From positions 131,774 through 195,773 of the forward strand of contig JAFGQU010000004.1 of the NCBI GenBank assembly GCA_016935525.1: DNA of 64,000 nt, written 5' to 3'. This DNA comes from Candidatus Omnitrophota bacterium (lineage in GTDB: Bacteria > Omnitrophota > Gorgyraeia > Duberdicusellales > 4484-171). The notes below the pieces were generated by a model. The model saw nothing but the letters and a program-made list of their open reading frames with translations, had not been told where the DNA came from and made no database searches. The translations under genes and the position numbers were made by a program. Of the stretch, positions 25,257 through 49,242 are shown piece by piece (position 1 is the first letter of the stretch; each line of letters starts with the position of its first letter).

Positions 25257-25628
25257 TCAGGATAAAAAGAATATACCCTCAGCACCGGCGACAAGATTAC
25301 CGTGTTCATCGTAAATCTCAACTGTCCCGTAGAATGACTTATCCCGTTTCCGGAGGATACGTGCCGATGCGAACAAAGACTCCGTACGGACCGGCCGCTT
25401 AAACTCTACCGTGAGCTTAAGCGTAGAAAATTTTCTTTGCGGGAAAACCACGGAAGCGCATACTGCCAGAGCGGTATCCGCCAACGAACAGATTACGCCT
25501 CCGTGCATAAAGCCTCGGGGATTAAGTAAATCCTCCCGGAAAGGAAGCTTCAGGAGTGTCTTTTCTTTTTCCCGGCAAACTACCTCAATTCCTACTATCC
25601 GTTCAAAATTCCCTTTTATCTCTTCCAT
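25257..25628 (-). CDS. PaaI-family hotdog-fold thioesterase
   Basis: HGGVICSLADTA motif of PaaI/4HBT-II thioesterases. 123 aa. Confidence 0.7.
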   Translation of the reverse strand: MEEIKGNFERIVGIEVVCREKEKTLLKLPFREDLLNPRGFMHGGVICSLADTALAVCASVVFPQRKFSTLKLTVEFKRPVRTESLFASARILRKRDKSFYGTVEIYDEHGNLVAGAEGIFFLS

Positions 25629-25631
25629 CTA

Positions 25632-27113
25632 CTAGTAGGTATACTTCGCTTCAAATACGATCTGGTCATTGTTACGGAATTGTCCGTTCGATCCCCATAC
25701 ACTGCCCCAGAAATGGTGGTATCCCAAAGTCAACCATAGGTTATCACGCAATTCGTATTTGGTCTTAAACGATATCCGCCCATCATTATCGTCACCGTAG
25801 ATGACCAGCACTTCCGGCTGAAGCCGTTCATGAAGGAAATCGGTCGCGATCTTCAACGTAAGAGTGTTCTCTATCTTCTCCATAGTACCGTACGTATACG
25901 CGTTCAATATCTGAAGATTCCCCGGCCGGTCGGCATCTTCATGGATAAACTGAGCGAACTGGACAGAGAACAGCCAGTTGGTAAAGAAATTCTTATCGAA
26001 TCCGAGCACATAGGCATATTTATCGCTGGGCTCGGTAGACTGGCGGCTTCCTTCCGTACCGTAATACGTCGGTTCATCTTTCAGGTAAGCGAATTCTCCG
26101 CGAATGGTCAGACCTTCCAGCGGTCCCCGTTCGACAAAACTACGATTGAACGAAAATCCCATCATCTGCATCAGTTTATGCCGGCGGGAGAACTGGTAAT
26201 CCCCGATGAACGGCGGATCAAAAGGGTTTGGCGTGGGGAAAAAAGAATCGGTGTAGGTATAGGCGTTGGTGGAATATCCATAAAGCCAGTTGAACGTATA
26301 TTCGAGGTTTCCGACCATAGACCTCCATCTTACGCCGACCCGGGAATTTTTAAACTGCTTGGCGGGTTGATATAACCGTAGATCGGTCGTCCCTCCGATG
26401 GCCGCATTAAAATTCCGGAACGAATCGAAATCATTAAACGATTTGAACGCAAAAGGAGCGTGCGGAGGAGCCGAACGCGACGCTTCGAAATCAGGAATCA
26501 CTAAGAGCTGTAGCGTCGAATCGACTTTCGGCGAATATTCCATCTTCATCATCCATAGCGGTATCCGGATATCGGCGAAATCGGGAAGCCAGTAGTAAGA
26601 AAGGTCAAAGGGCATAACCCGATCAAGTAAAGGTATCCCGTCGGCCATTCCCCACACCACCTGCTGTTTCCCCAGTCGGAGGTCCAGTTGCGGAGACGTA
26701 TAATCAAAATAACAGTCCCGCAACCATTCGGTACGTTGAGTATTTCCCATACTCTCTTGATTCTTATCATAGTAGGAATTGTAATCCGTACGGAGACTAT
26801 AGGCAGCGTCATAGAAGTACCGCGGATGGAAAAAGAAAGTCCATTTATCGGACATAGTATATTGGAGAGCGACATCGACGGTATTTTTCCATGATGAGAG
26901 AGAGAGATGCTCCTGGTCGTTATAGTTTTTTATCCAGGTTTCGGTTTTTACATACCCCGAATATTCGATTTTATCCGCACTATCCGCCGCATAAAGAGGC
27001 AACGGGATCAAGAGCACGTAGAACAACCACCTTTTCATATCATTCCCCCTTTTTCGAAAACTGAATTTCATATTACTCATTTTTATGAACAATGCCGGAT
27101 GAAGATCTACCAT
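25632..27113 (-). CDS. Outer-membrane beta-barrel protein (DUF1302-like)
   Basis: Signal peptide (LLIPLPLYAAD). Alternating amphipathic strands and an aromatic C-terminal residue (AKYTY). Adjacent to a LolA-like gene and the RND exporter. Confidence 0.5.
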   Translation of the reverse strand: MVDLHPALFIKMSNMKFSFRKRGNDMKRWLFYVLLIPLPLYAADSADKIEYSGYVKTETWIKNYNDQEHLSLSSWKNTVDVALQYTMSDKWTFFFHPRYFYDAAYSLRTDYNSYYDKNQESMGNTQRTEWLRDCYFDYTSPQLDLRLGKQQVVWGMADGIPLLDRVMPFDLSYYWLPDFADIRIPLWMMKMEYSPKVDSTLQLLVIPDFEASRSAPPHAPFAFKSFNDFDSFRNFNAAIGGTTDLRLYQPAKQFKNSRVGVRWRSMVGNLEYTFNWLYGYSTNAYTYTDSFFPTPNPFDPPFIGDYQFSRRHKLMQMMGFSFNRSFVERGPLEGLTIRGEFAYLKDEPTYYGTEGSRQSTEPSDKYAYVLGFDKNFFTNWLFSVQFAQFIHEDADRPGNLQILNAYTYGTMEKIENTLTLKIATDFLHERLQPEVLVIYGDDNDGRISFKTKYELRDNLWLTLGYHHFWGSVWGSNGQFRNNDQIVFEAKYTY

Positions 27114-28054
27114 CGCGAACGCATTAATGCTTTTACGGTAAAATTCTGTTCGTCTATACCTTGATCATACCGGGTATTACTCATAAGGATCGTCGTGCGA
27201 TGGTTCGTACGCAGGTCCTTGCATTCCAGGGAAATCTGGGTAGGATATCGCTGACCATTCACGTCAATCAAATCCCACTCCCGGGAAACCGTTTTAAACT
27301 TCCTTCCGGTTTTATCGTAATATTCCTCAAAAATGATTCCGCCGTGGCTCTTATCAACCCATACTACACGTTTGTCATAATACCAATGGCTTTTCTTAGG
27401 ACGGCATTCGATTATAAAACAGGGAGCTCCCTGAGCTTTCATCTCTCCGGTCTCCTCTAAAGTATACCCTTTGAACGCATCCTCTCCTTTCAATTCATAT
27501 GTTTCATCCTCGAACCGCCGGGTAGAGACTTCCTCTACCGTCAAATCCGACCCCATGAACGCGTCGTCATCTTCCGAAGCGGATATTTTACGGGCTTTTT
27601 TCAGAGAAGGGATCCATAACCATACTTCCTGGTCCTTCTGGTAATCTTTATAGGTCCAGGTCAATACCGCAAGACCCTTCACCTCGGTAGGATAGGTAAT
27701 CGCAATAAGGTCTTTATAAGAAATATCTCCTTTATCCCCTTCGACGATACGTAACCGTTCCCAGATACGTTTACGCGTGAAGCCCGAAGGATCGACGTAA
27801 AATACGTTCCCCTCCTGCTGGAAATCCTTCGCAAACAAAGAATATTTGTTATGATAAGCGATTTCCATAATTTCTCCAGCACTCATACCCGAGGCAGGAA
27901 CATAGAGACGATGATACTCCAATGGTAATGCCTCGACAGCAAAAATGCAGAGAATGAACACGACTATGAGCGTCCCCCACTTCATAGCGACCTCCTTTCT
28001 TGTTTTCTCTACCGGATCTGACTTACCCTTTTGAGACTTTTTTCCCTCTATCAC
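27107..28054 (-). CDS. Periplasmic LolA-like lipoprotein-carrier-fold protein (DUF1329-like)
   Basis: Signal peptide and the composition and size of outer-membrane lipoprotein-sorting-like proteins. Translationally coupled with the flanking genes. Confidence 0.5.
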   Translation of the reverse strand: MIEGKKSQKGKSDPVEKTRKEVAMKWGTLIVVFILCIFAVEALPLEYHRLYVPASGMSAGEIMEIAYHNKYSLFAKDFQQEGNVFYVDPSGFTRKRIWERLRIVEGDKGDISYKDLIAITYPTEVKGLAVLTWTYKDYQKDQEVWLWIPSLKKARKISASEDDDAFMGSDLTVEEVSTRRFEDETYELKGEDAFKGYTLEETGEMKAQGAPCFIIECRPKKSHWYYDKRVVWVDKSHGGIIFEEYYDKTGRKFKTVSREWDLIDVNGQRYPTQISLECKDLRTNHRTTILMSNTRYDQGIDEQNFTVKALMRSRW

Positions 28055-30428
28055 TATCCCGGTACTTCAAACGGCTGCGCACTTTTCCGAAAAGAAAATA
28101 AGGCTTGACCCACCATACCAATACCGGGATCATGACTAACGAGGTAACCATGTTAAGAATAAGCGCTACGCATAAATTTAATCCCAACCTCACCTGCAGG
28201 AGGATTGAAGAAAATACCCAGGCAAAAATACCCAGCGATACGATAAATCCGCTGAAGAACACCGCCTTTCCGGAAGTGATCAGAGTATGATAAAGAATAT
28301 TTTTATAAGTCCTCTTCTTTTCCCTCATCTCCTGATGGAACCGAGCCATCATATAGATCCCGTAGTTGATCCCTAATCCTTCACTTAAAGAAGCAAGCGG
28401 CAGGGTCTCGACGGTAATCGGCGTTCCCAGAAAACCATAGAGCGCAAAGACGATCAAATTGCTGAACGCCAGCGGTAATAGTAATAATCCCGCGGCCGTA
28501 AAAGAACGGTACATAAAACTTACGTATATAAAAATCAACACGGAGATAAAAAGAACATTGGGAACGATCGTACGTTTAATAATATCATTTACCGCATAGA
28601 GGATACCGATATCGCCCCCCCCGTAACGTATACGGACAGTGCCTTGCGGACGTCCGGACACATAGTTTCTGGTCGTTTTAATGATTTTAGCAACGGTACG
28701 CGACGTATGATTTTTGACGTTAAATTTGATATTCGCGGTTTTTTCATCGCGGCTGATAAGATGGTCGAAATCCGAGGGAAATCCGGAAAGAGTATAGAGG
28801 AACCAGTATTCGGCGATCGTCTTGTCGTTTTCAGGAATAGCAAAATATTCTCTTTTCCCCTCTTTCATGAACATATTAAGCCCTTTAATCGCGTTTGCAA
28901 TCGAAACGGCACTGCCTACTTCCGGGATATTATCGACAAGATAGGTCTGGAAATCGTCGATGGTGCTTAACACTTCACGAGAGAAAAGAGGACGGTCGGA
29001 TTCGACCAGCACATAATACGAATTCGTGCCGCCGAAATGGGTATTGATAAATTTTTCGGCCTGATTGTAGGGACTCTCCGGATAGAGGTAAGAAGAGCCC
29101 TGCGAATTATCGCCGATCACAATCCTGCTGATCCCCAATAACGCAACCAGTCCGCCCAGAATAAAGATCACGACGACGATAGTCCCGGCACGTTTACTCA
29201 GAGAAAATACGCTTAATCTCAAAAGCATCGCATCAACCCAGCGGTGTTCTTCTTCCTTTTCTATTTCCAGGATCTTCGGACGGTGCATAAAAGAAAGTAC
29301 CGCGGGAGTGAACATAAACGAAGTAAAAAAATTCGCCAGGATCCCCAGTCCGCTGGCAAACGCCATACTTTTAATCGTCGGCAACGGAACGAACATCAAA
29401 GAGAGAAACCCGAACCCATCGGTAAGCACACAGGCCAATCCGGGAATAAAAAGGTGAGCCATTGTACTGACAATAGCATGTTTACTTTTCATCCGCGGGT
29501 TGCGCATCTCTTCATAATAGCGTTTCAAAGTATGGACGGAATGGCTTATCCCTAACGACAACACGATAAAAGGGACAAGGATGGTCGAAGGGTCAAGACG
29601 TAATCCCATCAACTTCATCGTTCCCATCCCCCATAACGTAGCCATTGAAGAATCAAGTAAAGGGAGAATGATCCCGCGTTTAGAGCGAAACGTAAGATAG
29701 AGCACCGCGGAAATAATGAGAAAACTGATTATAAGGATCCGCAGCATCTTCGGCAGATAAGCATTAAGCCATCCTTCCAGTATCGGCCGGCCAGCAATAT
29801 AAAAATATGTATGCTCATCCTCATATTTGGTTTTCAATTCCTGAAGAGAACGGAAGATAGACGAAGTACGCACCTTTGAGGTAAAATCGACGTAAATGAG
29901 CGTACTGGTCATATCTTCAGAAACCATCCGGCGGTACACATTGGGGTCAGAAAGTACGTTTCTGCGGAATGCTTCCATCTCTTCCTGGTTCTCGGGAGGG
30001 TCCCGGAGCAATCGTTCCACGAAAAACCCTTCTTCATCGGCCCGGACATGCTTTACGTGCCGGCTGGCAATGGACTGCACACGGGAAATATTTACCCCTT
30101 CCAGAAGATATACATCTTCGGTAAGAGATATTACTTTTTCCAGAAAATCGTGGGTGAAAATATTTCCATCGGTCGACTTTAACGCAATTGATACCTGGTT
30201 TAACCCGCCAAACACGTCGGTAAGGATATTCTGAACCTGAATGAACGGGTGCTGTTGAGGAAGAAAATCTTCCAGGCGGGTCTCGATTTCAATATCTTTC
30301 AGTACACTGATAAAGAAAACCGAAATGATTATACAGGCAAGAATGATATAGATACGCAGATGGATGATTTGACGAGCTAAACGATAGCGAGAATCGAAAT
30401 GGAGCGAACTATCTTTGGTTTTTTTCAT
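28023..30428 (-). CDS. RND-superfamily exporter of the MMPL/HpnN type
   Basis: 801 aa. Two 6-TM bundles each preceded by a large periplasmic loop, as in MMPL/SSD transporters. Confidence 0.7.
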   Translation of the reverse strand: MKKTKDSSLHFDSRYRLARQIIHLRIYIILACIIISVFFISVLKDIEIETRLEDFLPQQHPFIQVQNILTDVFGGLNQVSIALKSTDGNIFTHDFLEKVISLTEDVYLLEGVNISRVQSIASRHVKHVRADEEGFFVERLLRDPPENQEEMEAFRRNVLSDPNVYRRMVSEDMTSTLIYVDFTSKVRTSSIFRSLQELKTKYEDEHTYFYIAGRPILEGWLNAYLPKMLRILIISFLIISAVLYLTFRSKRGIILPLLDSSMATLWGMGTMKLMGLRLDPSTILVPFIVLSLGISHSVHTLKRYYEEMRNPRMKSKHAIVSTMAHLFIPGLACVLTDGFGFLSLMFVPLPTIKSMAFASGLGILANFFTSFMFTPAVLSFMHRPKILEIEKEEEHRWVDAMLLRLSVFSLSKRAGTIVVVIFILGGLVALLGISRIVIGDNSQGSSYLYPESPYNQAEKFINTHFGGTNSYYVLVESDRPLFSREVLSTIDDFQTYLVDNIPEVGSAVSIANAIKGLNMFMKEGKREYFAIPENDKTIAEYWFLYTLSGFPSDFDHLISRDEKTANIKFNVKNHTSRTVAKIIKTTRNYVSGRPQGTVRIRYGGGDIGILYAVNDIIKRTIVPNVLFISVLIFIYVSFMYRSFTAAGLLLLPLAFSNLIVFALYGFLGTPITVETLPLASLSEGLGINYGIYMMARFHQEMREKKRTYKNILYHTLITSGKAVFFSGFIVSLGIFAWVFSSILLQVRLGLNLCVALILNMVTSLVMIPVLVWWVKPYFLFGKVRSRLKYRDSDRGKKVSKG

Positions 30429-30481: not shown

Positions 30482-31921
30482 TCAGGGAATGCCGAACCAC
30501 CCCGATACCGGAGATTTGTCAAACCCGATCCCGAGATGCCGGCACTGGACATATTCGAAAAACCCGGATTTACCCAGATTCCTGCCCCATCCGCTCTGTT
30601 TCGTCCCGCCGAAAGGAGTGGCCGAGTTCATCCGGGCAAACGTATTGAGCCATATCGTACCGCAGGAAACAGTTTTAGCTATTTTCTCGAGGTTTACTAT
30701 ATCTTTTGACCATAGCTGTGCTACTAATCCGGTAGGATTGTTCCGGAGGATCTTTTTGATCTCCTCGTTATTTTTCACTTTTTTCACTAACAGTACCGGC
30801 GCGAAAAACTCTTCATAAAGGATCTCGTCTATTTCGATAATCGTCGGCGGATAAAAATATCCTTTTAAGGAAGGGATCTCCCCGCCGGTAAGCAAGCGGT
30901 TGCCTTTATTTACCAATTCCTGTACCCGGGCATGCACCTCGTCACGGTGCCCTTTTGTCGGTAACGCGCCCATTGTGCAGGTAGCGCTGAAAGGGTCGCC
31001 TAACGTTATGGTTTTTACCCCTTCAAGTAACCGGGCAACACACCGATCATACACTTTCTCTTCGATAAGTACGATACTCGTCCCGATACAGATCTGTCCC
31101 TGTTTCATAAACGCCGAACCAAGGACGTTCTGGACGGCTTCCTCACAATCGGCATCGTTATAGATAACGGTACAATTCGCTCCGCCCAGTTCACAGAGGA
31201 TTTTTTTAGGGTACACGCTTGATTCACTCACTATTTTTTTGAGCGTCCCCCGTGACCCGGTAAAAGAGATAAGGTCTACCGGACTCCGAGCAAGGTGCGC
31301 TCCGACCGTTACGCCGGGACCGGAGACGATATTGATCAACCCTTTGGGTATATCGAGCCGGTCGATCACTTTCGCCAATTCCAATAATGAAAGCGATCCG
31401 TATTCCGAAGGTTTTACGATCAGACTGTTACCGCCGGCAAGCGCCGCCGCACAACTAAACCCGAAGATCATCAGTGGTACGTTATAAGGCAGATAGACCC
31501 CGCAGGTCCCAAACGGCACATAGTCGATATAATCGGTCCCGTCGGATGTGTGATGCAGCTCTTCGGTGAACGTCTCCAGAAATGAAGCGTAATACCCAAA
31601 ACAATCCGCCGCCAAAGGTATATCCACAAACAGAGATTCTTTATGCGGTTTACCTATCTCTCTGGTCTCAAGTTCAGCCAGGATGCTGAGATGTTCCAAG
31701 ATCGCTCTTTGGATCTCCCGTAACGTGTTCGCCCGGTCAAGCTTAGAAATTTCCCGCCACAGCAACGAAGCTTCCCTCGCCGCGTCGACCGCGGACTTAA
31801 GATCTTCCGACGTAGTCTCGTATATCTGAGCGATAGGTTCAGCCGTTACCGGATTTTCTATCGCGATCACATTGTTACTCTTTTTAAACTCTCCGGCAAT
31901 GTAATAAGGATATTCCTTCAT
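30482..31921 (-). CDS. NAD(P)-dependent aldehyde dehydrogenase
   Basis: ELGGANC Glu motif, GQICIGTS catalytic Cys motif and a GSxxTG cofactor motif. The ORF-track extension to 31969 starts at GTG inside the repeat and is unlikely. The MKEYPYY start fits better. Confidence 0.8.
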   Translation of the reverse strand: MKEYPYYIAGEFKKSNNVIAIENPVTAEPIAQIYETTSEDLKSAVDAAREASLLWREISKLDRANTLREIQRAILEHLSILAELETREIGKPHKESLFVDIPLAADCFGYYASFLETFTEELHHTSDGTDYIDYVPFGTCGVYLPYNVPLMIFGFSCAAALAGGNSLIVKPSEYGSLSLLELAKVIDRLDIPKGLINIVSGPGVTVGAHLARSPVDLISFTGSRGTLKKIVSESSVYPKKILCELGGANCTVIYNDADCEEAVQNVLGSAFMKQGQICIGTSIVLIEEKVYDRCVARLLEGVKTITLGDPFSATCTMGALPTKGHRDEVHARVQELVNKGNRLLTGGEIPSLKGYFYPPTIIEIDEILYEEFFAPVLLVKKVKNNEEIKKILRNNPTGLVAQLWSKDIVNLEKIAKTVSCGTIWLNTFARMNSATPFGGTKQSGWGRNLGKSGFFEYVQCRHLGIGFDKSPVSGWFGIP

Positions 31922-31939
31922 AATTTTAGTTTTATAATG

Positions 31940-32022
31940 GTCACACGACACATAGTCACATAGACACACGTAAAAAAATATGGATCTTATACGTGTGACG
32001 TGTGACGTGTGACTTTGTGACC
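31940..32022. repeat. REP-like GTGAC-heptamer palindromic element
   Basis: ggtcacacgacacatagtcacatagacacacg - taaaaaaatatggatcttat - acgtgtgacgtgtgacgtgtgactttgtgacc. Lies between the aldolase stop and the ALDH start. Confidence 0.8.
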
Positions 32023-32023
32023 T

Positions 32024-40137: not shown

Positions 40138-40237
40138 CGTAACGCGTAACGCGGCACGCGACACGCGCATAAAGAAAAATATTAAAATCGATTTCCTCTC
40201 CCCAAGACGCGTTACGCAGGACGCATGACGCGTTACG
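40138..40237. repeat. Variant palindromic element built from ACGCGTTAC/GTAACGCG heptamers
   Basis: cgtaacgcgtaacgcggcacgcgacacgcgc - ataaagaaaaatattaaaatcgatttcc - gacgcgttacgcaggacgcatgacgcgttacg. Same architecture as the GTGAC family, with a different unit. Confidence 0.75.
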
Positions 40238-41318: not shown

Positions 41319-41425
41319 GGTCCCTCCTTTTTGAAACACAGATAGTCACGGATTAAGATCCACAAGATGGTCACAGACGCAAAAATCTGCGATCATCAGT
41401 TCAAAATCAGCGATTATCTGCGCAA

Positions 41426-42661
41426 TCATGCCTTTTCAATAGCCAACACCACATTAATCCCGCCCCGGCCGCGCGCCAAAATAAGCGCTTTTTTTATTTT
41501 TCTCGACCGGGAAACGTTGGGAGTATAATCGAGATCACAGTAAGGGTCAGCCATCTCATAATTGATCGTAGGCAATATAGTCTCGTGCTCCATAGAAAGC
41601 AATGTCGAGATCAGATCAAGTGAAGTTTGAGCACCCAGGAGGTTTCCGTACATACTCTTGGGAGCGCTCAATGCGATACCACCGATCTTTTTACCGAACA
41701 CATTCTTTAGGGCCATTGTCTCATTACTGTCTCCGATTGTGGTCGCATCACCGTCGAGACAGATATAATCGATATCCTCCTTTTTCCATCCGGCATCATT
41801 GATACATTCTTCGATGGCATACTGGAAACTTTCCGGATCCAACCGGTACCGGGCATAATGGTACCCGTCACAACTTACTCCTATCCCGCGCAGGTATCCG
41901 TAGACCGGCGCGCTCCGATTACGGGCGTGGGCTTCTTTTTCGAACGTCACGATTCCGGCCCCTTCGCCCAACACAAACCCGTCACGGTTTAAATCATAGG
42001 GACGATACGCTTTTTGAGGATTAAGGTTATTTTTAGAAAGCTGACCGCAACTTGACGCCGAAAGGAGCGCATAAGGCGTAATCGGAGCTTCCATCCCGCC
42101 GGCAAGCACATAATCGTTTTTCCCCTCGGCGATCACTTTTGCTCCGTACCAAAGGGCAAGGGCCGATGAAGCTTTATCGGCGACGATGGTCTTACTATAC
42201 CCTTTAAACCCGTAATAAATAGTCACCTGCCCCTGAGGAGCCGCCGGAAACCAGGCACTGGCCATATAGGGCGAAATACCTTCACGGCCTTCCAAATACA
42301 TATCCCGCAGTTCAGTTTCGGCAAAAAGCCATCCTCCCAGAGCGTTTCCCATGAATACTCCGACTCTATTCTTATCCACCTGGGTATGATCTATCCGGGC
42401 ATCCTGTAACGCTTGTTCAGACGCTACCAGCGCCATATGAGAAAACACATCGATCTTTTTGATCAGCCGGCTCGATAAATGCGTGTAATAATCGAGTTCA
42501 TGTACCTGGCCGGCAATACGGGAAGGATAGAGTTTTGCGTCGAAGCGGGTGATCTCATCGACAAACGAACGGGCCTGTTTTAAATTCGCCCAAAACGTTT
42601 CTTTCTTCATCCCGCAGGGAGACACTACTCCTAATCCGGTAATAGCAACTGATTCTTTCAT
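41426..42661 (-). CDS. Ketosynthase-beta / chain-length-factor-like KS paralog, catalytically inactive
   Basis: Thiolase-fold KS in which the catalytic Cys position reads ADKASS (Lys). The two catalytic His positions read DGDATT and GNLLGAQ (Asp, Asn). Confidence 0.8.
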   Translation of the reverse strand: MKESVAITGLGVVSPCGMKKETFWANLKQARSFVDEITRFDAKLYPSRIAGQVHELDYYTHLSSRLIKKIDVFSHMALVASEQALQDARIDHTQVDKNRVGVFMGNALGGWLFAETELRDMYLEGREGISPYMASAWFPAAPQGQVTIYYGFKGYSKTIVADKASSALALWYGAKVIAEGKNDYVLAGGMEAPITPYALLSASSCGQLSKNNLNPQKAYRPYDLNRDGFVLGEGAGIVTFEKEAHARNRSAPVYGYLRGIGVSCDGYHYARYRLDPESFQYAIEECINDAGWKKEDIDYICLDGDATTIGDSNETMALKNVFGKKIGGIALSAPKSMYGNLLGAQTSLDLISTLLSMEHETILPTINYEMADPYCDLDYTPNVSRSRKIKKALILARGRGGINVVLAIEKA

Positions 42662-43932
42662 AAAGAAACTCCGTTTTCTTTGGTGTTAAAGCGTTTGAAA
42701 ATGATTGATGAGTGGATTCCTGAGAAACCACTACTTGTCTTTAAAATATAGTTCGGCATCAATTCCCGTTTGACATTGGGAATATAATCCAGGTCGCATT
42801 GCGGATCCGGTTCTTCCTGGTTGATCGTAGGAGGCAAATACCCGTTTTGAAAGATCATTCCGCACAGCACACTCTCCACCGCATTAGCCGCAGCTAAAGG
42901 ATGGCCGATCATCGATTTTATCGAACTGATCGGGACTTTATAGGCGTACTCTCCGAACACTCCTTTATACGCGTTGGTCTCAAACACATCGTTCTGGCGG
43001 GTTGAAGAACCGTGAGCGTTGATATAATCTATATCCTCGTTCTTTATTCCGGCATCGGCTATGGCTTCCCGGATACACCGTTCCATCGCTTCGCCGCTTT
43101 CGGGAAGATCAGTCATATGGTACGCATTACAGCTGGTACCGTATCCGACGACTTCTCCGTAAATAGGCACCCCTCTTTTTTTTGCGTGTTCTAACTCTTC
43201 TAAAATAAGGACGCCGGCGCCTTCGGAAATCACAAATCCGTTCCGTTTGTTATCAAACGGACGACTCGCTTTATGTGGTTCATCGTTATTTTTCGCAAGT
43301 ACGTTCACGACATCAAATGCTCCAAAAGTAATCGGGCAGACCGGGGCTTCACTTGCTCCGGCAATGACCAGGTCCTGCCGGCCGTCACGGATAAGTTCAT
43401 AGCTAAATCCTAACGAATCGGTCCCGGCGGTACATCCGGTAGAAACCGTACAATTGAACCCCTGAGTGCCGTACAGAGCGCTGATCTCACTGGAGGGGGT
43501 ATTGAACATCGCCGCATCGTAAAGATACGGCCTCCCTTTTCGGGGATCGATCGGATTTTTACCCCATCCGGTTACCCGTAAAAATTCTTCTTCCATAAAC
43601 CGGGTCCCACAGATGGCATTGGCAAGGATTACCCCGCATTTTTTCCGATCAAGTCCATTAAAATCTATTTTTCCGTCGGTCACCGCCTGGACCGCCGCAG
43701 CCAGGGCGAACTGGACGTACCTATCCATACGGAAATGGTCTTTAATCCCGAATTCTTCCGGATCAAAATCAAGATATTGCGAAGCGATCTTCGAGACAAA
43801 AAGACTTACGTCAAAATTTTCTACCAGTTCGACACAGGGTTTCCCGGAGATCAGATTATCGTAAAACGTATTTTTATCCGCACCGGCACCGCAGACAACG
43901 CCTAATCCCGTTATCACTACTCTTCTTTTCAT
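42658..43932 (-). CDS. Beta-ketoacyl synthase (KS-alpha)
   Basis: Catalytic Cys VSTGCTAGTDS, HGSST and GHPLAAA His motifs. Translationally coupled to the CLF gene. Confidence 0.85.
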   Translation of the reverse strand: MKRRVVITGLGVVCGAGADKNTFYDNLISGKPCVELVENFDVSLFVSKIASQYLDFDPEEFGIKDHFRMDRYVQFALAAAVQAVTDGKIDFNGLDRKKCGVILANAICGTRFMEEEFLRVTGWGKNPIDPRKGRPYLYDAAMFNTPSSEISALYGTQGFNCTVSTGCTAGTDSLGFSYELIRDGRQDLVIAGASEAPVCPITFGAFDVVNVLAKNNDEPHKASRPFDNKRNGFVISEGAGVLILEELEHAKKRGVPIYGEVVGYGTSCNAYHMTDLPESGEAMERCIREAIADAGIKNEDIDYINAHGSSTRQNDVFETNAYKGVFGEYAYKVPISSIKSMIGHPLAAANAVESVLCGMIFQNGYLPPTINQEEPDPQCDLDYIPNVKRELMPNYILKTSSGFSGIHSSIIFKRFNTKENGVSL

Positions 43933-44531
43933 TCTATTCTCCTTACCTTAAATTTCATATGCCCTCCGTCAGGACAGGCCGTACCGGTCTTACAGTGTTC
44001 GTTTTCTTCAAAAGTGAACTTCGCGCCGAAATTCAACGCAAACAGGACCGGAAACAGGACGCTGTAAGCCGCGCCACAAAACTCCGGAGGTGTTTTTAAC
44101 CCTTTTACCTGCCATTTGTCGCCCGGCTTGTAACCGAACGTACAATGTCCGCACGTCTCCTGCACCTCGATTTCCAGCTGTTTAGGATTGGGGCCTTTCG
44201 GTTTTTCAGCCCTGGGTTCGACAATTACATTACCGGCATCATCTAATATTTCGACTTTAAACGTAAGTTTGGCGTTATCGGGACAGGTCACATTGATCGA
44301 TCTGGTATTCTCCATGAACGGGAATTTCGCGCCGAAGGTAAGCGCGTAGAGACAGGGAAACGCCGATTGCGACAATCCCAGGCAGAAATCTTCGGGCGGA
44401 TGCGTAAAATCTTTCAAGATGAGCTCATCCCCTATCTTATAATTATGATAACAATACCCTCTTATCTCAAGAACAGTCAACTTCAGCTTGGGAAACGTTA
44501 CTTTTTGAGAGACTTCTTTTTTTTCATCCAT
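43929..44531 (-). CDS. Hypothetical protein made of two tandem roughly 95-aa Cys-rich domains
   Basis: Internal duplication. Both halves share C-x-H...K-x-GD...PE-x-FC...P-x-L-x-AL-x-FGAKF-x-F-x-EN...CPD...FKV. Confidence 0.5.
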   Translation of the reverse strand: MDEKKEVSQKVTFPKLKLTVLEIRGYCYHNYKIGDELILKDFTHPPEDFCLGLSQSAFPCLYALTFGAKFPFMENTRSINVTCPDNAKLTFKVEILDDAGNVIVEPRAEKPKGPNPKQLEIEVQETCGHCTFGYKPGDKWQVKGLKTPPEFCGAAYSVLFPVLFALNFGAKFTFEENEHCKTGTACPDGGHMKFKVRRIE

Positions 44532-45537
44532 ACGATTTCTCCTCTACCTTCGTCAATTCTTTCATGAATTCCTCAACAGATAAAAATGTATTTGTTTTTT
44601 CGACCCGGTGGACGAGTTCTACCATCTTTTTATTCAACGGCGCCTGGCTCATCGATTTTTCAGCCAAACCGACTATCTCTCCGTTAATATAATCTATTTC
44701 TGAAGGTTTTCCCCTCCGAATACTCTGTAATATAGATCCATAAAGCGGTTCTTCGCTTAAAGAAGCCATCACTTTCGAAAAAAGCACTGCCGCCTCTTTA
44801 GGAGGCATAGTGACTAACCCCTGGATACGTTCTTTAGGATATCCCGGAAGGCTGACCAGTTCGATGCCGGCATCTTCTATGACCGAATATGCCTCCCGGT
44901 TTACATAAATCGCGCATTCCGCAATTTCAAGATTACTGAACGCATCCTGCAGGGAAACTCCCAACACCGCCGGTATACAATTATTAAGGTTCACGAATAT
45001 TTTAAGATACTTCGCGCCCCGGATGTTTTTCTCATTCACCACGCGGGTAACCGGGCTAAGAATGCGTTCTATCTGGTCGAACTGCCAGCGGGGATTTTTA
45101 AAAAGGGACCCCACCACAAGGCTTCCTTCGAAATTGTGTACTACGCGGTCCGGCGGATAAAATGTCGCGCCGAACATCACGATCCCGGTGATGATCCGGG
45201 AAGCATGAGAATAATTCTCTACAATATAATCGGCGGCAATCCCGTTTTGAGTCGTGAGGATGAACGAATCTTTAAGATACGGCCCATTTTCTTTAAGAAC
45301 CGCCTCAAGATCGGCGATCTTGGTGGCAATTACCGCTACATCGACCGGCTCAGTCAACACGGTCTGCACATTGACTTTGACATTATGGGTCCCGCGTACG
45401 CCTTCGATCTTCAACCCTTCACGGGTCAACGGTTCTTTTTGATACTCCTTGACGATACCTATTACTTCACTGCGGCCGGAAAGATATCCTAAAAAAGCCC
45501 CGCCGATCGCTCCACATCCAAGTATCGCTACTCTCAT
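44524..45537 (-). CDS. 2-dehydropantoate 2-reductase-family (ApbA/PanE) oxidoreductase
   Basis: N-terminal MRVAILGCGAIGGAF Rossmann motif. KPR-like C-terminal domain. Confidence 0.7.
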   Translation of the reverse strand: MRVAILGCGAIGGAFLGYLSGRSEVIGIVKEYQKEPLTREGLKIEGVRGTHNVKVNVQTVLTEPVDVAVIATKIADLEAVLKENGPYLKDSFILTTQNGIAADYIVENYSHASRIITGIVMFGATFYPPDRVVHNFEGSLVVGSLFKNPRWQFDQIERILSPVTRVVNEKNIRGAKYLKIFVNLNNCIPAVLGVSLQDAFSNLEIAECAIYVNREAYSVIEDAGIELVSLPGYPKERIQGLVTMPPKEAAVLFSKVMASLSEEPLYGSILQSIRRGKPSEIDYINGEIVGLAEKSMSQAPLNKKMVELVHRVEKTNTFLSVEEFMKELTKVEEKSYG

Positions 45538-45986
45538 TGCCCCGCCTCACAATATTTTCTGAATGCCCCAAGCACTCGCTCAATATTCATACAATGCAGA
45601 CGTTTATATACCATGTTCCAAAGCATACGGGAACATCTCCCTTTCAATTCGCAACAAAAACGGTAGACGACTTCTATCTGGGCCCGGTCCTGGTGGACAA
45701 AAAATTCTTCATACCCGCCTTTAAACATCCCGTCAAGAAACGTACGGCGTAGATATTTTTTCTCTCGGTCGACGACTTCATTACGTTTATGCCATGCGGG
45801 CCCTAACGGGAACCGCGCCTTTTGCCAATACAGCGTGCCTTCTTTGATGTCACCGGAAAGGTTAATAAACCTCATCATCATTTTTTCAGGCCACCACTCT
45901 GACTGTGGACCCAGAAGCAATTCTTCAAAGACATCGATCCCGTTTCTTTGCAGTGAAAAAACGATATTTTGTTTAATCGTCTCCAT
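45534..45986 (-). CDS. Hypothetical protein
   Basis: 150-aa ORF, translationally coupled within the cluster. No confident motif. Confidence 0.35.
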   Translation of the reverse strand: METIKQNIVFSLQRNGIDVFEELLLGPQSEWWPEKMMMRFINLSGDIKEGTLYWQKARFPLGPAWHKRNEVVDREKKYLRRTFLDGMFKGGYEEFFVHQDRAQIEVVYRFCCELKGRCSRMLWNMVYKRLHCMNIERVLGAFRKYCEAGQ

Positions 45987-46245
45987 CTTCTATATATTGT
46001 TTGTAGGGAACCTCCAGCTGCTGAAACAGACGGCGCATCATGTCACGAAATGCCGGGGGCACCTCACAGAAAAAGGCTTTAATAAGATCTTCTTCCTCTA
46101 CGGTGCGGGAATCCCGCGCGCCGGCGATCGCTTCGGCAGATTCTTTCACCAGGTGTTCGGCGATCGAACGGTGAAATTGAGGAAGATTCCCGATCACTTT
46201 ATCAAAGATATCCTGGGCATTTTTAGCCCATGCAACTGATGCCAT
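45973..46245 (-). CDS. Hypothetical small protein
   Basis: 90-aa ORF in operon position. Confidence 0.3.
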   Translation of the reverse strand: MASVAWAKNAQDIFDKVIGNLPQFHRSIAEHLVKESAEAIAGARDSRTVEEEDLIKAFFCEVPPAFRDMMRRLFQQLEVPYKQYIEDGDD

Positions 46246-46246
46246 G

Positions 46247-46984
46247 TCATACTCCTTTCTCGATCAGACTGAACGCCCCGTTAATCATCTTCATCTCGGC
46301 TTCAAAATAACGATAATCGGTAAACCCCATCTGTCCGGTAATAAGGTTATCGGAAACCGCAAGGACCACCGCGACTTTCTTTTTATAGATATTCGCCAAG
46401 GTCACGAAAGGGCTGGTAACCATATCAACGGCGATAGCGCCTTTATCGATATAAGAATTTACTATATCTTTCGTTTCGCGAAATATCGCATCGGTTGTCC
46501 ATACCCCGCCGCGATGGGTACCGCTGATCTCCTTAAATGTATCGACCAACGACGAAGTCAACTGTCCATCTACCAGAGGCATATATTCATCGTCCACGTA
46601 ATACCGGGTAACCCCGTCACCCCTGATCACTTTATCGGCAACAATAAAATCACCGATCTCGATATCATCGCGCAGGGCTCCGCAGGAACCGATACGGATA
46701 AGCGTCTCTACTCCGGCGGCACAGACCAATTCGGTAATAAACGCCGAATCGGGAGCGTAAAACCCTCCGTTGCCGACGGTGACCCGTTTCCCTTTATACG
46801 TACCGGTCCAGAAAGTGTAGCCCAGAAAAGTAAAATTTTTTACGGGATCTTCAAGTTTATCGACACACATTTTAGCCCGTTGCGGTTGTCCGCTGATGAT
46901 CGCAGTGTGAGCAAAATCGCCGGGACGAAACTGCAAAGAGTCTAACAGGCCTTTCGGTTCCATATGGATCTCTCTGGTCATCAT
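46247..46984 (-). CDS. PNP/UDP-family nucleoside phosphorylase or nucleosidase
   Basis: PNP_UDP_1 fold pattern (GNGGFYAPDSAF, IRIGSCGAL, a VDMVTSP-like region). Confidence 0.7.
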   Translation of the reverse strand: MMTREIHMEPKGLLDSLQFRPGDFAHTAIISGQPQRAKMCVDKLEDPVKNFTFLGYTFWTGTYKGKRVTVGNGGFYAPDSAFITELVCAAGVETLIRIGSCGALRDDIEIGDFIVADKVIRGDGVTRYYVDDEYMPLVDGQLTSSLVDTFKEISGTHRGGVWTTDAIFRETKDIVNSYIDKGAIAVDMVTSPFVTLANIYKKKVAVVLAVSDNLITGQMGFTDYRYFEAEMKMINGAFSLIEKGV

Positions 46985-47002
46985 AATGATACTCCTTTAA
47001 TT

Positions 47003-47107
47003 AGTCACAAGGTCACATAGTCACAGGTCACACGCAATAGTTACTTTGAGGTATTTTCTTGACGTGTGTCGTGTGACGTGTGTCGTGTGACGTGTGTCGT
47101 GTGACGT
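47003..47107. repeat. REP-like GTGAC element with a 14-nt GTGTGACGTGTGTC x3 right arm
   Basis: tagtcacaaggtcacatagtcacaggtcacacgc - aatagttactttgaggtattttctt - gacgtgtgtcgtgtgacgtgtgtcgtgtgacgtgtgtcgtgtgacgttg. The right arm lies inside the ligase 3' coding end. Confidence 0.8.
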
Positions 47108-48603
47108 TGCAATGCTTGTTTATCGATCTTTCCCGTACGGTTTTTCGGTAACGACGCTACAAATTCAAAATGGTGAGGCACCTTAAAATGGGCAAGAAAT
47201 TTTCTCAAAAATTCGCGCAGGTCCTGAAGCGATAACTGCTCGTTTTCCTTAAGGACGATGAACGCTTTGGGGACTTCACCGCGTAACGCATCGGGCATAC
47301 CGATAACCGCGACTTCTTTTATTTTAGGATGCCGCTGGATCTTTTCTTCGACTTCAGCCGAAAAAACTATCTCGCCGGCCACTTTGATCATATCTTTCTT
47401 ACGTCCTACGATATAAAACAAGCCGTCTTTATCGCAATACGCGATATCTCCGGTCTTTAACCACCCGTCTTCGGTAAGTACTTCTTTGGTCAATTCCTCT
47501 TCCTGATAGTACCCACGCATCACTCCTTTACCTTTTACCCATAATTCTCCCTGTGCATTCACGGCACACCGGTTACCTTCGGCATCAACGATCTTTGCCT
47601 GTAAATAAGGCGAAAATCCGCCGATACTATGGATCTTATGTATATCGTTGGGAGAATAAGTGTTGGGTGCGGATGTCTCAGTCATCCCCCATCCGTTTAA
47701 AAGCGCGGATTCAGGGCACATTTTCTTGAATCGTTCAAGAAGTACCGGCGAAGAGGGAGCCCCGAATACCACGGCCCAACGCAACGAGGAAAGATCGAAC
47801 TTCTCCTGCCCTTTTAAAGAAAGGATAGCGACAAACATCGCCGGCACAATACAGAATATAGTCCCCCGGTAACGTTCAATAGTATGCAAGAATTCTAAAG
47901 GTTGAAATCTCTCCATCAATACCAGCGGTGAAGCAAAACAAAGCATGAGCAGGATATAATCTACACCGGCAATATGAGAGAACGGCACCCCGGCACAGAC
48001 AAAAATATCCTTATCGGTTATCTTAAGAAAATAATCCATGGTTTCCATGGGACTATCCAGATGAGCATAGTTAAGCATCACTCCTTTAGGATGGCCGGTA
48101 GAACCGGAAGTATAGAAAATAGCGGCAAGATGTCCGGGATCGATCGGGGAAGAAGGTTCCCGGGTATCTTTCTGTAACACTATCCGGTCCCAAGAAATCG
48201 CCTCAGCAGTCTCCTCTCCTAAGGTTATGATATGGCTTAATGTCGGACAGGCTTTTTTGATCTGATCGATATCGATCCCTTTTTTAGGCTGGAGGATCAG
48301 AGCCCGGGTGCGGCTATGGGTTACAAACTGAATGATCTCGTCCTGCGTCAACATGAAATCAAAAGGGATCACCGTCGCTCCCAGGCTGAATACACCGAGA
48401 AAACTCATCAGCGTTTCGGGGATATTCGGCAGGTAGAGAGCTATGTTATCATCCGGTGAGATACCGTGTTTGAGAAGATGATTCGCCAGGCCAAACGCGG
48501 TATCCCTGATCTGGGGAAACGTTATCTGCCGGTCTTTATACATGAGCATCGGCCTCGTTTGATAACGTTCACTTTGCTGAATAAGGAGTTTTTTTACATC
48601 CAT
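47041..48603 (-). CDS. AMP-dependent acyl-CoA/acyl-ACP ligase
   Basis: IFYTSGSTGHPKGVML AMP-binding motif and a C-terminal GKIDKQAL. The last roughly 20 codons (HVTRHTSHDTR...) are read from the repeat array. Confidence 0.8.
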   Translation of the reverse strand: MDVKKLLIQQSERYQTRPMLMYKDRQITFPQIRDTAFGLANHLLKHGISPDDNIALYLPNIPETLMSFLGVFSLGATVIPFDFMLTQDEIIQFVTHSRTRALILQPKKGIDIDQIKKACPTLSHIITLGEETAEAISWDRIVLQKDTREPSSPIDPGHLAAIFYTSGSTGHPKGVMLNYAHLDSPMETMDYFLKITDKDIFVCAGVPFSHIAGVDYILLMLCFASPLVLMERFQPLEFLHTIERYRGTIFCIVPAMFVAILSLKGQEKFDLSSLRWAVVFGAPSSPVLLERFKKMCPESALLNGWGMTETSAPNTYSPNDIHKIHSIGGFSPYLQAKIVDAEGNRCAVNAQGELWVKGKGVMRGYYQEEELTKEVLTEDGWLKTGDIAYCDKDGLFYIVGRKKDMIKVAGEIVFSAEVEEKIQRHPKIKEVAVIGMPDALRGEVPKAFIVLKENEQLSLQDLREFLRKFLAHFKVPHHFEFVASLPKNRTGKIDKQALQRHTTHVTRHTSHDTRQENTSK

Positions 48604-48625
48604 TTATTATTACCTAGCCTCATTA

Positions 48626-48655
48626 TAGTAAAATTTTATTAGTTAAATTTTACTA
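48626..48655. promoter_or_regulatory. AT-rich imperfect palindrome, a candidate PadR operator or promoter element for the cluster
   Basis: TAGTAAAATTTTA-ttag-TTAAATTTTACTA in the 96-nt gap between the padR stop and the first cluster gene. Confidence 0.35.
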
Positions 48656-48699
48656 TTCTCTTTTAAAAAGTCAACTTATAAATAAAAATTAATGTGTAT

Positions 48700-49242
48700 C
48701 TATGCTTTTTCCGGGGGGGGATCAAATTTTTGCTGCTTTACCGTATCAAACATCTCTTTAAGAAACGTCCTTTCGGTAGCCACTAAGCCTAAATGATGCC
48801 CAATAAGAAGCTGAATGTTCCGCGGTGAAGATTTTAATTCCTGCCGCTTGGTGAGAAGCCAATTTTCGGCTTCTCTTAAAAACCGCATCCGCAGCCGCAG
48901 AAGCGGGAGGACCTCCTCTTTATTGAGAAAAGAAAGAAAATAAAGCGGGATGTCTATTTCGATAAAAGGCCGCCGTTCAGAAAGTAGAGCTTCTTTTGCC
49001 AGACGGGAAAATTCTCTCTCACCGCGGGAAGTAATACAATAGGTATATTTACGCAGGCGGGCCTGCGGCACCTCTTTTCTTTCGACAAACCCTTCTTTTT
49101 CCATCTTCTGAAGCGGGTAATAGATCGACCTGGTCTCTAACTGAGAAAACAATCCCAACTCTTTGGTGATGAATTTTTTGATATCGTATCCGGTAGCGGG
49201 GTGTTTCTTCAAAATACCCAGAATAATAAATCGCTGTATCAT
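48700..49242 (-). CDS. PadR-family transcriptional regulator
   Basis: N-terminal winged-helix GILKKHPATGYDIKKFI...YYPLQKMEKEGFV. 180 aa. Confidence 0.8.
   Translation of the reverse strand: MIQRFIILGILKKHPATGYDIKKFITKELGLFSQLETRSIYYPLQKMEKEGFVERKEVPQARLRKYTYCITSRGEREFSRLAKEALLSERRPFIEIDIPLYFLSFLNKEEVLPLLRLRMRFLREAENWLLTKRQELKSSPRNIQLLIGHHLGLVATERTFLKEMFDTVKQQKFDPPPEKA

Follow-up and report, generated by a model that had tools for sequence, protein, structure and literature searches.

A 24 kb operon of a Candidatus Omnitrophota bacterium encodes, as judged from its protein families, an ancestral-type type II polyketide synthase (PKS) with an unprecedented accessory set. The operon lies on the minus strand at positions 25257–49242 of a 64,000-nucleotide stretch of DNA, here called the window (GenBank assembly GCA_016935525.1, contig JAFGQU010000004.1, positions 131,774–195,773). 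Its 25 co-directional open reading frames (ORFs) run from the start of a PadR regulator gene at 49242 to the stop of a 4HBT thioesterase gene at 25257, exactly the bounds that an earlier, sequence-only reading had given for a co-directional biosynthetic cluster. We think it probable, on balance, that the 25 genes form a single conserved operon making an aromatic polyketide; it would join the ancestral-type PKS to oxygen-independent tailoring, a branch that cleaves nucleosides and delivery of the product to the cell envelope. The combination of PKS, nucleoside branch, cobalamin (B12)-binding radical S-adenosylmethionine (SAM) enzyme and MMPL/LolA-like transport genes is kept across two phyla. 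Our literature search found no description of the operon, its partners or its product; a catalogue of chain-length factors (CLFs) lists Candidatus Omnitrophica among 14 phyla with ketosynthase (KS)-CLF pairs, without further analysis (PMC10132072).

Gene order and conservation of the operon

The genes are closely packed, with overlaps at 12 of the 24 junctions, gaps of 3 bp or less at two more and a largest gap of 112 bp. Families were assigned with Pfam and NCBIfam searches, and function assignments rest on homology and synteny throughout. All families named in the sequence-only reading were confirmed by Pfam, and what it had called a duplicated Cys-rich protein is a pair of TIGR04076 domains; the genes it named are right, while its inventory omitted the phosphorylase (46247–46984) and both IF-2B genes (33497–34402 and 33018–33500). 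In order from the PadR end, the genes are as follows.

48700–49242, minus strand: PadR-family regulator (PF03551, E 4e-12)
47041–48603, minus strand: AMP-dependent acyl ligase, FadD-like (PF00501 4.9e-81, PF13193)
46247–46984, minus strand: DeoD-type (hexameric) nucleoside phosphorylase, PNP_UDP_1 family (PF01048 5.6e-35)
45973–46245, minus strand: 90-residue helical protein (weak, below-cutoff DUF2621 match only)
45534–45986, minus strand: 150-residue protein, no assigned family (no Pfam or NCBIfam match)
44524–45537, minus strand: PanE/ApbA-family NAD(P)H oxidoreductase (PF02558, PF08546)
43929–44531, minus strand: tandem TIGR04076 domains, Cys/His-rich (2x TIGR04076)
42658–43932, minus strand: KS-alpha, predicted active ketosynthase (PF00109/PF02801)
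41426–42661, minus strand: KS-beta/CLF, predicted non-condensing partner (Cys to Lys/Arg, second His to Asp)
41082–41339, minus strand: dedicated acyl carrier protein, ACP (PF00550 2.5e-8)
40233–41039, minus strand: 'putative cyclase' with metal motif HVGTHLDYSFH (PF04199 1e-27)
39683–40120, minus strand: predicted mono-domain aromatase/cyclase of TcmN/WhiE/ZhuI type, 145-residue SRPBCC protein (PF10604/PF03364)
38566–39690, minus strand: MFS transporter (PF07690 4.8e-27)
37766–38539, minus strand: short-chain dehydrogenase/reductase (SDR), ketoreductase-like (PF00106 9e-49, KR domain 2.6e-13)
36193–37653, minus strand: class B cobalamin-binding radical SAM enzyme (PF02310, PF04055)
35207–36115, minus strand: Amidohydrolase_2 enzyme (PF04909 7e-19)
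34395–35210, minus strand: class IV (fold type IV) aminotransferase or lyase, accessory (PF01063 7e-45)
33497–34402, minus strand: MtnA-like, IF-2B-family sugar-1-phosphate aldose-ketose isomerase (PF01008 8e-38)
33018–33500, minus strand: small IF-2B-like protein, half domain, 160 residues (PF01008 1.9e-5)
32024–33046, minus strand: class II metal-dependent aldolase fused to SCP2, 340 residues (PF00596 1.6e-36, PF02036 1e-7)
30482–31969, minus strand: NAD(P)+ aldehyde dehydrogenase, ALDH (PF00171 1e-121)
28023–30428, minus strand: MMPL/HAE3-type RND transporter (PF03176 5.6e-34, sterol-sensing domain)
27107–28054, minus strand: LolA-like/DUF1329 periplasmic lipid carrier (PF17131 4e-41, PF07044)
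25632–27113, minus strand: DUF1302 outer-membrane protein (PF06980 1e-23)
25257–25628, minus strand: PaaI/4HBT hotdog thioesterase, accessory (PF03061 2.5e-14, TIGR00369 3.6e-15)

A scan of one genome per GTDB species gave 45 loci, nearly all labelled Omnitrophota (loci carry an L number below). By tblastn with all window proteins, the order from the AMP-ligase to the ALDH is colinear in these 45 species-level genomes, so the clustering is far beyond chance, and KS and CLF are 68–90% identical across them. A second scan was centred on the LolA-like gene, and complete genomes were also looked up. Three sub-modules reshuffle yet stay linked: M1 (ligase, phosphorylase, PanE, TIGR04076, KS, CLF, ACP, cyclases, MFS and SDR), M2 (radical SAM, Amidohydrolase_2, in some loci the aminotransferase, IF-2B, in some the small IF-2B, aldolase-SCP2 and ALDH) and M3 (MMPL, LolA-like and DUF1302). 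Ligase, radical SAM, phosphorylase, both IF-2B genes, aldolase and ALDH are contiguous in L053, L055 and L058, where the ALDH is followed by the MMPL and LolA-like genes and, where the locus reaches that far, DUF1302; L050 has the same run from the radical SAM gene on, its ligase being off the contig. M3 sits between ACP and cyclase in L060. Genome CP070807 keeps M1 (L001) apart from M2 and M3 (L065), with 0.68 Mb between, and the cluster in both CP070797 (L066) and L042 stops at the ALDH, M3 being absent beside it.

The CLF forms an isolated family. When it was compared by HMMER with 1.84 billion cluster representatives, the next one stood at 56% identity and came from metagenome-assembled genomes (MAGs) labelled 'Deltaproteobacteria bacterium'. 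Their locus (L068) reads MMPL, LolA/DUF1329, B12-radical SAM, tungsten-type aldehyde:ferredoxin oxidoreductase (AFOR), PanE, TIGR04076 pair, KS, CLF and ACP, then PF04199 cyclase, SRPBCC, MFS, a second AFOR, Amidohydrolase_2, a flavin amine-oxidase-like gene, phosphorylase, IF-2B, small IF-2B and aldolase-SCP2. There is no ALDH within the 21 kb of this locus covered, and the two AFOR genes stand in its place. As this is a swap between non-orthologous aldehyde oxidoreductases, the aldehyde-to-acid step itself appears to belong to the pathway. The colinear genomes, the linked sub-modules and L068 together show a neighbourhood conserved as one unit, in support of the single cluster described by the sequence-only reading.

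The same operon, with CLFs 75–90% identical, also occurs in a contig labelled as a Methanosarcinales archaeon (L026, JAIWAR010000044.1) and in several labelled 'uncultured Planctomycetia' (L002, L013); these labels are probably binning or labelling errors. Single genomes carry insertions: an IS200-like transposase between aldolase and ALDH (L050:5351–6076), a HipA-like toxin kinase between SDR and radical SAM (L030:15693–16553) and a NucS-like nuclease (L023:12700–13461).

The polyketide synthase core and its tailoring enzymes

KS-alpha has Cys167, His272, His307 and Lys339 in place, both in the window and in 45–46 orthologues, and its top match in the Protein Data Bank (PDB) is AntD (6smo_B, 365 bits). 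The CLF of the window has Lys at the Cys position; across 120 orthologues this residue is Lys in 79 and Arg in 41, the second His is Asp in 119, and the first His is retained in 112. By its active-site residues, the second KS is catalytically dead. The sequence-only reading had described it as lacking the Cys and both His, which holds for the Cys and the second His and fails for the first. Actinobacterial CLFs carry Gln at the Cys position; those of Clostridium, Ktedonobacter and Archangium have Arg. The Ser for phosphopantetheine attachment lies within 'GVDSTE' of the ACP. A neighbour-joining (NJ) tree was built from 26 sequences (409 columns, 300 bootstraps). In it, KS-alpha shares a clade with Deltaproteobacteria KS, a C. 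beijerinckii KS and AntD (bootstrap 100), and the CLF with all CLF-like proteins, including those of Clostridium, Ktedonobacter and Archangium (bootstrap 100); both clades stand apart from FabF of Bacillus, Paenibacillus, Brocadiaceae, Verrucomicrobiota and Eremiobacterota.

These results decide between a PKS and housekeeping fatty-acid synthesis. A FabF paralogue pair among unrelated neighbours would explain why KS-alpha passes the NCBIfam FabF-subfamily cutoff, why the best PDB matches of the CLF are FabF proteins and why accA lies directly upstream; it does not fit a second KS without its catalytic Cys in 120 of 120 orthologues and with the second His replaced in all but one, nor a pair that falls outside FabF in the tree and whose neighbours are in every case polyketide cyclases and a divergent ACP and in none fabD, fabG, fabH or fabZ. 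We regard this explanation as extremely improbable and rejected it on the active-site census and the tree. The sequence-only reading, which had taken the pair for a type II PKS and named as evidence to the contrary a position within FabF together with a second KS that is still active, is upheld: the pair lies in PKS clades and its second KS lacks the catalytic Cys. On the families and residues found, the core is a true aromatic PKS of type II, belonging to the 'ancestral' kind found in anaerobes.

A CLF representative 39–40% identical to that of the window stands for C. beijerinckii and C. puniceum. We take these to be the two clostrubin producers, and the C. beijerinckii locus (L067, JABTAE010000001.1) is probably, going by its host species, the clostrubin locus. 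It shares with the window a KS (44% identical), a CLF (39%) with Arg at the Cys position, as in the 41 Arg-type orthologues above, a PF04199 protein (44%), a 145-residue SRPBCC protein (44%), an Amidohydrolase_2 enzyme (29%) and TIGR04076-like ORFs, and its DUF169 and alpha/beta-hydrolase genes recur in some Omnitrophota loci. It differs in having phosphopantetheinyl transferases (PPTases), KSIII, CMD, DUF362 and an ABC exporter, and in lacking the B12-radical SAM enzyme, PanE, phosphorylase, IF-2B, aldolase-SCP2, ALDH, AMP-ligase and MMPL/LolA/DUF1302. The closest known relatives of the core are the 'ancestral' type II PKSs of non-actinomycete anaerobes, of the clostrubin and dendrubin (den, Dendrosporobacter) type (PMC7693217).

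The Photorhabdus ant cluster, the source of the top structural match and a member of the same KS clade, is a second point of comparison. It comprises KS, CLF, ACP, the AMP-ligase AntG, a ketoreductase, a cyclase and an aromatase; EncN is another ligase with a proposed ACP-loading role. The window cluster has neither an AntB-type PPTase nor an AntI-type lyase (no ACPS/PPTase and no alpha/beta-hydrolase among its genes), and the ant cluster lacks radical SAM, nucleoside-cleaving and MMPL genes. AntG is needed for efficient production and has been suggested to load the ACP, and AntH is a tridomain aromatase, unlike the mono-domain protein of the window (PMC6638757).

Two of the genes beside the core are likely to fold the chain. 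A profile of 14 SRPBCC orthologues matched TcmN (2rez, 3e-34), 3tvr (2e-30) and 3tl1 (1e-30) in the PDB, the last two both filed as 'Polyketide cyclase' and presumably WhiE and ZhuI, respectively. The PF04199 protein is 44–45% identical to the PF04199 genes of the C. beijerinckii and Deltaproteobacteria PKS loci, and we propose that it is a later-ring cyclase; if OxyN belongs to PF04199, as we assume, its position beside a minimal PKS would make it an OxyN-type cyclase. The 150-residue ORF, present in 9 loci, is possibly a divergent SRPBCC-like second cyclase: hhalign against the aromatase/cyclase profile gave a probability of 18%, and its sole PDB profile match is the SRPBCC protein TTHA0849 (E 0.23). 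Clear TcmN-type genes number one in the cluster.

Neither a dehydratase (FabZ/FabA-like) nor an enoyl reductase family occurs among the 25 genes, whose sole hotdog protein is the non-conserved 4HBT, which makes a polyene or saturated product unlikely. This bears on the likeness to aryl-polyene and xanthomonadin clusters drawn by the sequence-only reading. Aryl-polyene and flexirubin clusters carry KS/CLF, ACP, an adenylating enzyme, a thioesterase, an MMPL protein and a LolA-like carrier. On this comparison, the AMP-ligase could load an aryl or acyl starter for an aryl-polyene-, xanthomonadin- or flexirubin-like pigment, or for a ladderane-like lipid in the sense of the antiSMASH rules, which MMPL/LolA would export. 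Moreover, antiSMASH 'ladderane' biosynthetic gene clusters have been reported in Omnitrophota MAGs (PMC9902471), and the radical SAM enzyme weakly matches the ladderane-associated TIGR04072 (2e-19). That match reaches 69.5 bits against a cutoff of 360, however, and is outscored by the BchE and HpnJ models; the SRPBCC protein is of the TcmN aromatase/cyclase type, KS and CLF fall among aromatic PKS subunits, and the list of 60 PDB matches for KS-alpha contains no aryl-polyene ketosynthase, although such structures exist. We rejected a reduced or polyene lipid on the missing dehydratases, the TcmN match and the TIGR04072 score, and consider it very unlikely; the nearest systems are instead the clostrubin/dendrubin-type PKSs.

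Reduction could involve several proteins. The PanE-like enzyme scores 141.5 bits against TIGR00745 (cutoff 141.35), and in nine Omnitrophota loci it forms with the tandem TIGR04076 domains a single in-frame ORF of 536–557 residues (L003:4904–6511, L004:7032–8669, L006:3940–5547, L007:5974–7614, L009:6854–8524, L037, L038, L039 and L044), a fusion that ties PanE to the TIGR04076 pair. TIGR04076-like ORFs also stand in the C. beijerinckii locus (11260–11787 and 15656–15946), one of them directly after the CLF. TIGR04076 thus seems to accompany type II PKSs of the anaerobe type repeatedly; such a partnership was not found discussed in the literature searched. The SDR is 56–80% identical across related loci.

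The B12-radical SAM enzyme matches BchE (3e-52) and HpnJ (5.5e-39) models far under their cutoffs, as it does TIGR04072. Its orthologues are 75–83% identical, and a second type (47–52% identical) occurs in L053, L060, L066 and L068. The 90-residue protein, conserved in 42 loci, is probably its accessory, since the second-type enzyme of CP070797 (L066:5178–6905, 575 residues) ends in about 85 residues homologous to it, and in L060 its gene lies directly downstream of the radical SAM gene. The Amidohydrolase_2 gene always follows the radical SAM gene; the best PDB matches of its product are ACMSD, LigW and PtmU3, it also resembles decarboxylases of the resorcylate type, and we propose a non-oxidative aryl-acid decarboxylase, fitting an o-hydroxy aryl acid as substrate. 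The aminotransferase gave IlvE-, Dat- and PabC-like matches, all below cutoff, and about a quarter of the loci lack it.

The predicted nucleoside-cleaving branch and the proposed export module

The most unusual part of the operon, which the sequence-only reading did not recognise, is a set of phosphorylase, isomerase, aldolase and ALDH. The phosphorylase is 61–84% identical in 45 loci and adjoins IF-2B in L053-type loci and in L068. It matches NCBIfam DeoD (1e-31) and HpnG (1e-10) models, below every equivalog cutoff, and its best PDB matches are the purine nucleoside phosphorylase 1xe3 and the S. solfataricus MTAP 1jds, a hexameric 5'-methylthioadenosine (MTA) phosphorylase. The isomerase matches MtnA models at 1e-46 to 1e-48 (158.8 bits against a cutoff of 279); its TICN and GADR motifs align with T. 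maritima MtnA (1t9k), and we take the Cys and Asp in them to be the MtnA catalytic residues. The small IF-2B protein, probably a partner of the isomerase, occurs in 14 loci (full-length in 13), those whose form of the branch has the higher identity and most resembles that of the window, and in L068 as well.

The aldolase keeps a Glu, a His-x-His and a further His, presumably the class II metal site known from FucA. In its AF2 model (pLDDT 91.5) the protein has two domains, and the best superpositions of the N-terminal one are with FucA proteins and with B. thuringiensis 6btd/6btg, the latter at TM 0.82–0.84. The PDB files these entries as a deoxyribose-phosphate aldolase dispatching a radical SAM product; we take them to be DrdA, the 5-deoxyribulose-1-phosphate aldolase. 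The tblastn match spans SCP2 in nearly every locus with a complete gene and the L068 copy is also fused, while in L004, L038 and L054 the match covers the aldolase part only. The ALDH resembles betaine-, aminobutyr- and phenylacetaldehyde dehydrogenases. Enzymes of this class oxidise aldehydes essentially irreversibly, and a branch running from nucleoside to aldehyde to acid would suit the ALDH and AFOR versions alike. At the far end of the operon, the ligase matches the long-chain-fatty-acid-CoA ligase model PRK06187 (1e-122, below cutoff) and adjoins the phosphorylase gene in about 40 loci; we propose that it activates an acid and loads it as a CoA or ACP thioester.

The same chemical order is found in the dihydroxyacetone phosphate (DHAP) shunt, in which a nucleoside is converted to a sugar-1-phosphate, then to a ketose-1-phosphate and finally to DHAP and an aldehyde, which is processed further, by a phosphorylase (or a nucleosidase and kinase), an MtnA isomerase and an Ald2/DrdA aldolase (PMC10986504). 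The window differs in the aldolase-SCP2 fusion, in the extra half-size IF-2B protein, in NCBIfam scores all under equivalog cutoffs, and in the embedding within a PKS operon that also encodes an ALDH (or AFOR) and a FadD-like ligase. To our knowledge, no characterised DHAP shunt has an SCP2-fused aldolase.

What the branch is for can be read in more than one way. We give even odds to a biosynthetic role, in which the ligase would activate its acid, possibly derived from an adenosylated hydrophobic intermediate, for use by the PKS; in favour are the linkage in both phyla, the fusion to SCP2 and the FadD-like character of the ligase. Less likely, in our estimate, is that the branch recycles radical SAM-derived 5'-deoxyadenosine or MTA, an alternative favoured by the DeoC-family aldolase and zinc alcohol dehydrogenase (ADH) genes that adjoin the ALDH in CP070807. 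That the branch does something else again we hold unlikely.

Resemblance to the hopanoid side-chain (HpnH/HpnG/HpnJ/HpnN) and futalosine (MqnE/MqnB) pathways is one of logic only: a radical SAM enzyme is combined with a PNP-family enzyme, whose substrate is an adenosine linked to a lipid or an aryl group, and with lipid export by an RND/MMPL protein. In the window the ribose would be cleaved by isomerase and aldolase, not kept or cyclised. A hopanoid-type system was rejected on the scores for HpnG (41 bits against a cutoff of 187), HpnJ (134 against 578) and HpnN (69 against 752, E 1.9e-19), and neither a squalene-hopene cyclase nor an HpnH or MqnE-type enzyme was seen among the window ORFs examined.

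The MFS gene follows that for the aromatase/cyclase in nearly all loci, L001 and L068 among them. The MMPL protein matches the HAE3 model TIGR00921 at 4e-60 and is 63–72% identical in L047–L065; the LolA-like protein has a hydrophobic N-terminal signal or anchor, and the DUF1302 protein a signal-peptide-like N-terminus. DUF1302 follows the LolA-like gene in 14 of 18 LolA-centred loci and in L065, the others ending earlier or, like L068 in the 21 kb covered, being without DUF1302. The link between this module and the cluster, as the sequence-only reading had proposed it, is real: it takes three arrangements and occurs in both phyla, supporting a shared hydrophobic cargo, and we infer export to the outer membrane. 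[quoted passage not shown] No BNR-repeat partner of the Pseudomonas kind was seen in the window, where the module is tied to a biosynthetic operon.

A DUF169 gene, absent from the window, follows DUF1302 in L060 (11884–12696) and L065 (19713–20447) and occurs in the C. beijerinckii locus (14870–15586). One Omnitrophota sub-clade has alpha/beta-hydrolase (esterase-like) genes between KS and CLF or just after CLF (L003:7847–8899 and 8935–9978, L007:8945–9976, L004:11122–12237), which may encode release or chain-trimming enzymes replacing the 4HBT of the window.

The operon might alternatively be a mosaic of three functions that travel together and share no intermediate: a PKS, a general hydrophobic transporter and a housekeeping DHAP shunt turning 5'-deoxyadenosine or MTA into DHAP and acetaldehyde, then acetate and acetyl-CoA. 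The phosphorylase/MtnA-like/class II aldolase trio does match the published shunt (PMC10986504), and the window holds at least four radical SAM genes. Acetaldehyde-type chemistry is suggested by the DeoC and ADH genes of CP070807, whose PKS core is 0.68 Mb from the radical SAM-shunt-MMPL part, and the MMPL module is missing beside the cluster in L042 and L066. Yet the combination recurs in a second phylum in a different order and with a non-orthologous aldehyde oxidoreductase, and L060 has the MMPL module between ACP and cyclase. Furthermore, the phosphorylase gene lies inside the PKS half in about 40 genomes, with its partners 10 kb downstream in the same operon; an aldolase-SCP2 fusion (three loci matched the aldolase part only) would be needless for a shunt releasing a C2 aldehyde, and the ligase is FadD-like rather than acetyl-CoA synthetase-like. 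We consider such a mosaic doubtful.

Outside the operon, the flanks are housekeeping genes: upstream accA (49239–50189), an L,D-transpeptidase and a PAP2-like gene, and downstream RlmN, a further radical SAM gene, an RsmB/F methyltransferase and a TPR protein. The PadR start overlaps the accA stop by 4 bp, and the order accA-PadR-ligase is preserved in L002 and L043. A promoter-like site (48674–48647) lies between PadR and the ligase, just downstream of PadR, and is not above chance, promoter-like counts being at or below the shuffled expectation. Terminator-like counts exceeded the shuffled expectation, yet none was seen within the intergenic gaps, and there is no Rfam match to a riboswitch or other RNA within the window. 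Three minus-strand radical SAM genes follow closely downstream of the cluster, at 14781–16055 (424 residues), 23172–24080 (302 residues) and 24130–25200 (RlmN), the last a conserved downstream neighbour in L042, L053 and L054. Further off are two adjacent minus-strand paralogues (56487–58043 and 58161–59702), each with a GDSL-lipase-like N-terminal domain followed by TPR repeats, and an 892-residue GH94-like gene (cellobiose/chitobiose phosphorylase family; 17639–20317, plus strand); apart from it, all large genes of that stretch are on the minus strand.

A putative pathway and its biological meaning

In the pathway that we propose, KS-alpha, the inactive K/R-type CLF and the ACP would build a poly-beta-keto chain from malonyl units, with accA directly upstream, and the TcmN-type aromatase/cyclase and PF04199 cyclase would fold it into a polyphenol. 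Reductions would fall to the SDR and the PanE-TIGR04076 pair, decarboxylation of an aryl acid to Amidohydrolase_2, and C-methylation or another radical step to the B12-radical SAM enzyme with its 90-residue accessory; the fold-IV aminotransferase may participate in some lineages. A second branch would convert a 5'-substituted adenosine, either 5'-deoxyadenosine/MTA or an adenosylated hydrophobic intermediate, to DHAP and an aldehyde. Here the DeoD-type phosphorylase would remove the base, the MtnA-like isomerase and its small partner would convert the sugar-1-phosphate, and the SCP2-fused class II aldolase would cleave the resulting ketose phosphate. The aldehyde would then be oxidised by the ALDH (by AFOR in Deltaproteobacteria) and the acid activated by the FadD-like ligase, most likely as a PKS starter or extender. 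Release is assigned tentatively to the thioesterase (to alpha/beta-hydrolases in other lineages), after which the MFS and MMPL/LolA-like/DUF1302 proteins would move the product into the cell envelope.

Several points weigh against this scheme. KS-alpha exceeds the FabF-subfamily cutoff clearly (PRK07314, 424.6 against 387), and the NJ tree is small and made up of references other than actinobacterial ones. Pfam and NCBIfam found no PPTase, malonyl-CoA:ACP transacylase or KSIII among the 25 genes, so a PPTase and a malonyl transferase would have to be supplied from elsewhere. The phosphorylase, isomerase and aldolase could be a general 5'-deoxyadenosine/MTA salvage route parked beside a radical SAM gene, and the DeoC and ADH genes of CP070807, placed between ALDH and MMPL (L065:12836–14712), fit small aldehydes. 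We know of no adenosylating radical SAM enzyme of the cobalamin-binding class B, MqnE and HpnH being of other kinds. In L042 and L066 the MMPL module does not adjoin the cluster, and a 4HBT homologue was found in no related locus examined, only in the window. Finally, the Pseudomonas DUF1302/DUF1329/RND genes give fatty-ester growth phenotypes, for which uptake or hydrolysis has been proposed (bioRxiv 10.1101/2020.07.04.188060).

A bolder version of the biosynthetic role would make the adenosyl group of SAM a carbon donor: in a radical SAM step, 5'-deoxyadenosyl would be attached to a hydrophobic, polyketide-derived intermediate, and the phosphorylase, the MtnA-like isomerase with its partner and the SCP2-tethered aldolase would cut the ribose away as DHAP, leaving a two-carbon aldehyde arm to be oxidised by ALDH or AFOR and re-activated for the PKS by the ligase. 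We think this improbable as matters stand, about on a par with the mosaic. If true, it would be a route to polyketide starters or side chains not described before, with a logic akin to that of futalosine and adenosylhopane.

For the proposed pathway as a whole, the findings extend the 'ancestral' anaerobe-type lineage of type II PKSs (dendrubin, probably clostrubin) to two further phyla and add recurrent partners not found discussed in the literature searched, namely the TIGR04076 domains, the PanE-like reductase and the class B radical SAM enzyme. The coupling of a polyketide to a DHAP shunt-like branch would be new chemistry if biosynthetic, and by-product recycling wired into a pathway if it is salvage. 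The gene set is compact and amenable to heterologous expression, as done for the ant system with antDEF in E. coli (PMC6638757).

Omnitrophota are uncultured, ultra-small bacteria with genomes of 0.86–3.2 Mb, some of which have been reported to carry UbiA-type prenyltransferases (PMC10066038). There is no prenyltransferase in or near the cluster, so that its use as the source of a quinone head group is speculation only. Many Omnitrophota nevertheless keep the operon, with core enzymes 70–90% identical among them, and that very small genomes should retain these 24 kb suggests that the product serves the physiology of the cell and is not a dispensable antibiotic. Clostrubin has been proposed to act in oxygen survival (PMC5321127), and we speculate that the product here is likewise an envelope antioxidant, or else a redox-active polyphenol or quinone. 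Should the adenosyl-donor proposal hold, Omnitrophota and some Deltaproteobacteria would share such an envelope polyphenol or quinone as a conserved part of their physiology, serving for example as antioxidant or in electron transfer and not as an antibiotic.

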